Assembly (NCBI RefSeq): GCF_024298765.1
Contig: NZ_CP101210.1
From: Escherichia coli
GTDB lineage: Bacteria; Pseudomonadota; Gammaproteobacteria; Enterobacterales; Enterobacteriaceae
Length of the DNA stretch: 64,000 nt
Reading direction: 5' to 3' (one strand)
In this document: positions 52,182-52,262 of the stretch, one piece after another
How positions within the stretch are numbered: the stretch's first letter is position 1
Layout: every line of letters starts with the position of its first letter
Translations under genes and position numbers: made by a program
The notes under the pieces: model-generated
Told to the model about the DNA's origin: nothing
The model's input: the letters and a program-made list of their open reading frames with translations, nothing else
The model's database searches: none

Positions 52182-52262
52182 GCTTAAAAATAAGGCCGGA
52201 TGTGTGAATTACGCTCCGGCCTGTTCTCCAACATTTAATGACAAATAGATAAAGCATTCCGC

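Follow-up and report, generated by a model that had tools for sequence, protein, structure and literature searches.

A common cbrC-less allele of the yieH-phoU variable region in Escherichia coli, probably derived by secondary loss of cbrC

We found that the window, that is the whole stretch of 64,000 nucleotides (64 kb) of Escherichia coli DNA analysed here, carries a cbrC-less allele of the yieH-phoU variable region, which very likely goes back to a secondary deletion of cbrC from an ancestral yieH-cbrB-cbrC arrangement. The absence of cbrC is clean, as no pseudogene remnant is present, both neighbouring genes are intact and the putative terminator is retained. A preliminary description of this DNA had proposed a clean strain-specific absence. 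The first part of that proposal stands, but the absence is not strain-specific, since the same uninterrupted junction was found in 730 of 5426 genomes. The lack of cbrC is a lineage-level allele, common, old and already published (2009), and is not peculiar to one strain.

Organization of the yieH-phoU region

Positions 44000-64000 of the window are 100% identical to many finished genomes of human and avian origin, such as 14EC020, MSHS 133 and FDAARGOS_1286/1287; NZ_CP024138.1, for example, matches the window at 100% identity. According to the annotation of such an identical genome and the open reading frames (ORFs) of the window, the genes are arranged as phoU-bglGFBH-yieL-yieK, followed by cbrB-yieH and adeP-yieF. 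The bgl operon adjoins phoU, with the order phoU, bglG, bglF, bglB, bglH, yieL and yieK, and the same annotation places bglB at 47152-48546, bglH at 48632-50248 and adeP at 53635-54972. The yieL ORF spans 50242-51444 and is intact, encoding 389 aa from the annotated ATG at 50275 to its end at 51444. In other strains this gene is damaged: it is annotated as frameshifted in strain 104 (a 1-bp gap) and has internal stops in CT29 and EC21Z-137, in agreement with the published erosion of the bgl-yieLK block. The final gene of that block, yieK (51459-52181, plus strand, stop codon at 52179-52181), is intact and encodes a 240-aa protein of the glucosamine-6-phosphate deaminase family (PF01182); it is annotated as yieK in the identical genomes. 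On the minus strand lie cbrB (yieI; 52263-52736, stop codon at 52263-52265), encoding a predicted inner-membrane protein of 157 aa, and yieH (52803-53468), which encodes a HAD-family 6-phosphogluconate phosphatase and is the core-genome gene that flanks the island.

Absence of cbrC and identity of the 157-aa protein

The K-12 gene order on which the preliminary description had relied proved correct: in K-12, yieK is followed by 61 bp, cbrC (588 bp), 48 bp and cbrB. In the window, the counterpart of this segment is a single spacer of 81 bp (52182-52262), where a gap of about 80 bp had been reported, and the ORF list contains no frame of at least 40 aa on either strand of it. We searched for CbrC-like sequence throughout the 64-kb window and found none. 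Using K-12 CbrC as a query against the whole window, tblastn gave chance matches alone (best E = 1.3), and blastn-short with K-12 cbrC and its flanks returned a 31-nt hairpin flank as the sole match. K-12 CbrC itself reaches 373 bits on NF040891 and 233 bits with PF03691 (UPF0167), which shows that the test for CbrC had power. An Rfam search of 51400-53700 gave nothing relevant, its sole match being a sub-threshold chance match to ES003 inside cbrB.

The 157-aa ORF is CbrB, as had been assumed. Over its full length it shares 91% identity with K-12 CbrB; it has no match to CbrC, and scores 253.5 bits on the NCBIfam equivalog NF007334 (cutoff 177) over residues 1-157. In addition, its position, downstream of yieH and preceded by a cre tag, is orthologous, and it is annotated as cbrB in the identical genomes. 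A Pfam search with the ORF gave no match; relatives carry PF26516.

CbrB occurs in forms of 157 aa and 155 aa, distinguished by a 6-bp indel within a variable transmembrane segment (52590-52620, codons about 38-52). The 157-aa form is the commoner one (about 2811 genomes), while the 155-aa form of K-12 is a minority (about 1471). A link between the 157-aa form and the loss of cbrC was considered and refuted, because this form is far more frequent than the 730 cbrC-less genomes and is also found in the cbrC-positive strains TW10598 and fECg99.1.

A conserved hairpin downstream of cbrB

The GGCCGGA...TCCGGCC hairpin noticed earlier in the spacer was recovered by folding. On the minus strand it occupies 52184-52222, with a stem-loop of 13 pairs at 52193-52222, a centroid energy of -20.3 kcal/mol and a z-score of -3.43; none of 200 shuffled sequences folded as well. 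On this strand the GC-rich stem-loop is directly followed by a U-tract (UUAUUUUUAAGC / UUAUUUUU), so that the hairpin reads as a putative intrinsic terminator of the cbrB transcript, or of the cbrB-cbrC transcript in K-12. On the plus strand it also lies just past yieK. A simple terminator scan did not flag the hairpin, probably because of the bulge in its stem.

The hairpin is conserved in both cbrC-positive and cbrC-less haplotypes. As all cbrC-positive haplotypes examined have the same hairpin, it is not a scar of the deletion. Its ends resemble a REP element (GCCGGATG...CCGGCCT, against the REP consensus GCCGGATG...ATCCGGCCTAC); against this consensus the ends agree (GCCGGATG / TCCGGCCTG) and the centre differs.

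Anatomy of the junction

Clear homology to K-12 stops at position 52228 of the window (2330 in the K-12 locus L001) and restarts at 52247 (L001:2964). Between these points, an 18-nt segment, CAACATTTAATGACAAAT (52229-52246), replaces 633 bp of K-12 (L001:2331-2963). Besides cbrC itself, these take in 13 nt from the yieK-cbrC spacer and, from the cbrC-cbrB spacer, 32 nt that include the Shine-Dalgarno region of cbrC. Net, the window and K-12 differ here by 616 bp. Thus, what is missing amounts to about 0.62 kb: the 588-bp cbrC, its ribosome-binding region and a few bases past the stop codon. About 20 nt at the junction fit neither K-12 flank well. The origin of the 18-mer is ambiguous, as it may be either a diverged cbrB-cbrC spacer or a diverged segment from downstream of cbrC, and the breakpoints can be placed only to within about 20 nt.

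We propose that one E. coli lineage lost about 0.62 kb by deletion, comprising cbrC, its Shine-Dalgarno region and a few bases beyond the stop codon. Such a deletion would have left cbrB and its upstream cre tag in place and would have put the terminator-like hairpin 40 nt past the cbrB stop. Two imperfect direct repeats, AGACAGG in the Shine-Dalgarno region of cbrC and AGAACAGG at the base of the hairpin, offer a candidate mechanism by slippage or illegitimate recombination, since recombination between them would yield a product of the observed length. Under the repeat model, the 43 nt past the cbrB stop would be a diverged cbrB-cbrC spacer; the cbrB-cbrC spacer of E. albertii is also 43 nt long. 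In an alternative model, one breakpoint would directly follow TTTATCT in the spacer and the other would be close to the stop codon of cbrC. Single-gap scans and shuffled alignments did not separate the two models statistically (z about 1.6-2.2), which leaves the direct-repeat mechanism unproven. The junction core resembles the E. albertii spacer (p about 0.03-0.08) and the K-12 segment downstream of cbrC (p about 0.04-0.12) equally weakly.

Distribution of the cbrC-less allele in E. coli

A 95-bp probe across the junction was searched in 5426 complete E. coli genomes. The uninterrupted junction was found in 730 of them, or about one in seven, and 585 of these matched at an identity of at least 95%. 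Among the carriers are the type strain DSM 30083 (= ATCC 11775), ATCC 25922 ('FDA strain Seattle 1946') and UTI89; the junction of the window is 100% identical over 95 bp to that of DSM 30083 and shares 98.4% identity with that of UTI89, a B2 strain. The island is present in 4290 of the 5426 genomes, so that the junction is split in 3560 (4290 - 730), and about 1100 genomes are without the whole bgl-cbr block. Some match to cbrC was obtained in 3550 genomes, and a match over at least 80% of its length in 3192. In some genomes the best match to cbrC covers no more than its first 334 or 493 nt, which points to truncations. Other lesions were seen as well: IS903B is inserted in cbrB of the cbrC-less strain 102651 (L011), and cbrC is frameshifted in the K-12-like strain Z217-4 (L012). 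In two of the genomes without the bgl-cbr block, the O157 strain AR-0428 (L004) and LP5-1 (L006), yieH adjoins instead an island for the T3SS effector EspY4 and further proteins that are effector-like or hypothetical; this island corresponds to the Z5211-Z5214 'type III' locus.

Furthermore, we found a second cbrC-less subtype in CT29, ET776, JNE151685 and EC21Z-137. Its flanks are K-12-like and 11 bp are deleted on the yieK side of the junction, but its boundaries are those of the window and it has a related 18-mer, CAACGGTTAATTACAAAT, which matches that of the window at 15 of 18 positions (3 SNPs). This related 18-mer is absent from every cbrC-positive haplotype examined; the cbrC-positive haplotypes (K-12, the ST131-like GN06098, TW10598 and fECg99.1) share a different pair of flanks. 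cbrC itself varies little within E. coli (98.5-100% identity). The region is mosaic, with alleles of yieK, cbrB and yieH reassorted among strains. Together, the shared boundaries, the related 18-mers and the mosaic structure fit a single old event followed by recombination. The cbrC-less allele is old. Two sequence subtypes of it exist, and it has passed across lineages by inheritance with occasional recombination.

Polarity of the change

The polarity of the change rests on one outgroup species, E. albertii. The E. albertii CbrC protein P0252 led to a locus (L027, CP117583.1) with the order adeP, yieH, a 193-bp spacer, cbrC and phoU. This spacer (5808-6000) contains the yieH-cbrB intergenic region up to the start of cbrB, 34 nt that correspond to cbrB codons 9-19, the last 20 nt of cbrB, and the cbrB-cbrC spacer. 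Thus cbrB is decayed in E. albertii, its start region and about 370 bp of internal sequence being deleted, whereas cbrC is intact and 89.6% identical to the K-12 gene at the DNA level. A decayed cbrB next to an intact cbrC indicates that the pair was present in the common ancestor, and hence that the window shows a secondary loss of cbrC. The divergence of cbrB-cbrC between the two species looks vertical; transfer between the species would be a less likely alternative. In the same E. albertii locus, one half-site of the cre tag is mutated (TTCTC), and the cbrC-phoU interval holds a canonical REP element.

Other candidate outgroups were rejected. Two CbrB homologues, P0128 and P0173, at first appeared to represent a divergent species with yieH-cbrB-cbrC synteny, at 64-70% identity, but they derive from bisulfite-converted E. 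coli DNA. The contigs concerned (L013, L016, L017 and L018, from the Logan assemblies ERR3578235, SRR13921543, ERR3578256 and SRR11109008, respectively) contain 0-0.5% C and about 51% T, and are colinear with E. coli at 71-79% identity. Such converted contigs create spurious remote homologues in protein collections. Distant CbrB homologues of 30-42% identity have no cbrC neighbour and are uninformative on the polarity; their occurrence in other genera without an adjacent cbrC suggests that the cbrB-cbrC pairing is Escherichia-specific. A scan of species-representative genomes for CbrB yielded just a 274-bp contaminant contig. We also noted a 1239-bp singleton contig (L014, Logan SRR26188688) with a window-type yieH (88.5% nucleotide identity) and a cbrB with a divergent central segment, whose product is only 37% identical to E. 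coli CbrB; after these come a cbrB-cbrC spacer of the K-12 kind and the beginning of cbrC.

Alternative explanations

The window might instead represent the ancestral state, with cbrC inserted by horizontal acquisition between cbrB and the terminator in K-12-like lineages. Sankar et al. (PMC2646131) indeed infer horizontal acquisition of yieI and yieJ, the nearest homologues of YieJ being found in Firmicutes. Moreover, the junction 18-mer is not obviously derived from the K-12 flanks, and no cbrC adjoins the distant cbrB homologues. However, the presence in E. albertii of cbrC and of decayed cbrB remnants, at the same locus and with about 88-90% DNA identity, shows that the pair predates the diversification of E. 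coli. The diversity of cbrC within E. coli is that of a core gene, and all cbrC-positive haplotypes have the same flanks despite very different backgrounds. We consider such an insertion improbable, and secondary deletion of cbrC remains our preferred reading.

That deletion need not have been a single event, as cbrC could have been lost several times independently at a deletion hotspot. The occurrence of cbrC-less junctions on two flank backgrounds, the type II-like one of the window and UTI89 and the K-12-like one of CT29 and ET776, would agree with this, as would other independent lesions such as the Z217-4 frameshift and the truncated copies of cbrC. On the other hand, both subtypes share their boundaries and a related 18-mer not seen in the cbrC-positive haplotypes examined, and a region so visibly mosaic is accounted for by one event and recombination, which makes repeated loss an unlikely course. 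It is harder still to believe that the gap is an assembly or sequencing artefact, or that cbrC has moved elsewhere. Only 64 kb of the genome is visible in the window, which gives such a relocation some room, but the identical junction recurs in hundreds of independently finished genomes, and the number of genomes with cbrC (3550) is close to the number with a split junction (3560), so that no systematic second location can be accommodated. Both of these explanations thus have far less in their favour than an old deletion at this site, and the artefact or relocation has next to nothing.

Dimorphism of yieH

The neighbouring yieH is strongly dimorphic in E. coli, over a segment (52803-53646) that includes the yieH-adeP intergenic region. 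The allele of the window was found at an identity of at least 95% in 2102 genomes, and the K-12-type allele, which is about 82-83% identical to it, in 3113. Compared to K-12, DNA identity falls to 66-68% over 53147-53346. The differences are mostly at third codon positions (19/20/88 at first, second and third positions), and the proteins are 86% identical. The divergence between the two alleles (17% overall) is far deeper than the normal divergence of E. coli core genes, and the yieH classes assort independently of the presence of cbrC. The age of the cbrC-less allele, its spread by recombination onto K-12-like backgrounds and the deep split of yieH would hint at long-term balancing selection or introgression at the yieH-cbr junction. 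It is nevertheless doubtful that the cbrC-less allele is a selectively maintained colicin-tolerance polymorphism rather than a neutral loss.

The cre tag and predicted consequences of cbrC loss

Upstream of cbrB we found a match to the cre tag consensus TTCAC-N6-TTCAC (PMC13214185). This motif, TTCACACTCCCTTCAC (52784-52799, minus strand), ends 47 nt upstream of the cbrB ATG and is the only match in the 64-kb window, where 0.15 would be expected by chance. Judged by its sequence, it is a predicted CreB-binding motif that has been kept upstream of cbrB. With cbrC lost, cbrB would form a monocistronic CreBC-regulated unit.

NCBIfam NF040891 is named 'colicin E2 tolerance protein CbrC'. For the function of CbrC, we counted as support the title of Cariss et al. 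2010 as it is cited in bioRxiv 10.1101/615310; in the text of that preprint, the overproduced protein is YieI and not YieJ, which is a discrepancy. A cbrC-less strain is predicted to be without CbrC-mediated, CreBC-dependent colicin E2 tolerance. At the level of the population, carriers of the allele, among them many B2/ExPEC strains and the type strain of E. coli, are predicted to be unable to mount a CbrC-dependent tolerance to this colicin.

Comparison with known variants of the region

The yieH-phoU region was typed in 174 strains by Sankar, Neelakanta, Schnetz and co-workers (PLoS Genet 2009, PMC2646131), who label the loci in their Figure 1 as types Ia to V. They describe two bgl-positive variants, a K-12-like one with yieI and yieJ and a CFT073-like one with yieI only, and a type II bgl clade that is confined to phylogroup B2 (ST73, ST95 and ST12 complexes). 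From the B2 strains that carry the junction, we equate type II with the CFT073-like variant. The same paper reports the Z5211-Z5214 island in group D and O157 strains, and yieJ adjoining phoU in E. albertii. As in the window, the bgl-Z type II locus has phoU-bglGFBH-yieL-yieK and then yieI (cbrB) alone, without yieJ (cbrC). The haplotype of the window, which is 100% identical to 14EC020, MSHS 133 and the avian isolates, is not formally typed in the scheme as available to us, and we found no mention of the second cbrC-less subtype, with K-12-like flanks, in the parts of the paper available to us. To the description of 2009 the present analysis adds this second subtype, as well as the E. albertii cbrB remnants, which fix the polarity as deletion. 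The K-12 gene order is no safe template for the yieH-phoU variable region, a caution that matters little beyond annotation.

Compared to the cbrB-cbrC locus of K-12 (b3716-b3717), yieH, the cre tag, cbrB and the hairpin of the window are orthologous and colinear. The window differs in being without cbrC and about 30 nt around it, and in encoding a CbrB of 157 aa instead of 155 aa, with 91% identity between the two. The yieH-cbrC-phoU locus of E. albertii (type V of Sankar et al.) occupies the same position between yieH and phoU and has a homologous yieH-cbrB intergenic region. The two loci have decayed in a reciprocal manner: in E. albertii cbrC has been retained, while most of cbrB and all of bgl-yieLK are gone, whereas the window has retained cbrB and bgl-yieLK and is without cbrC.
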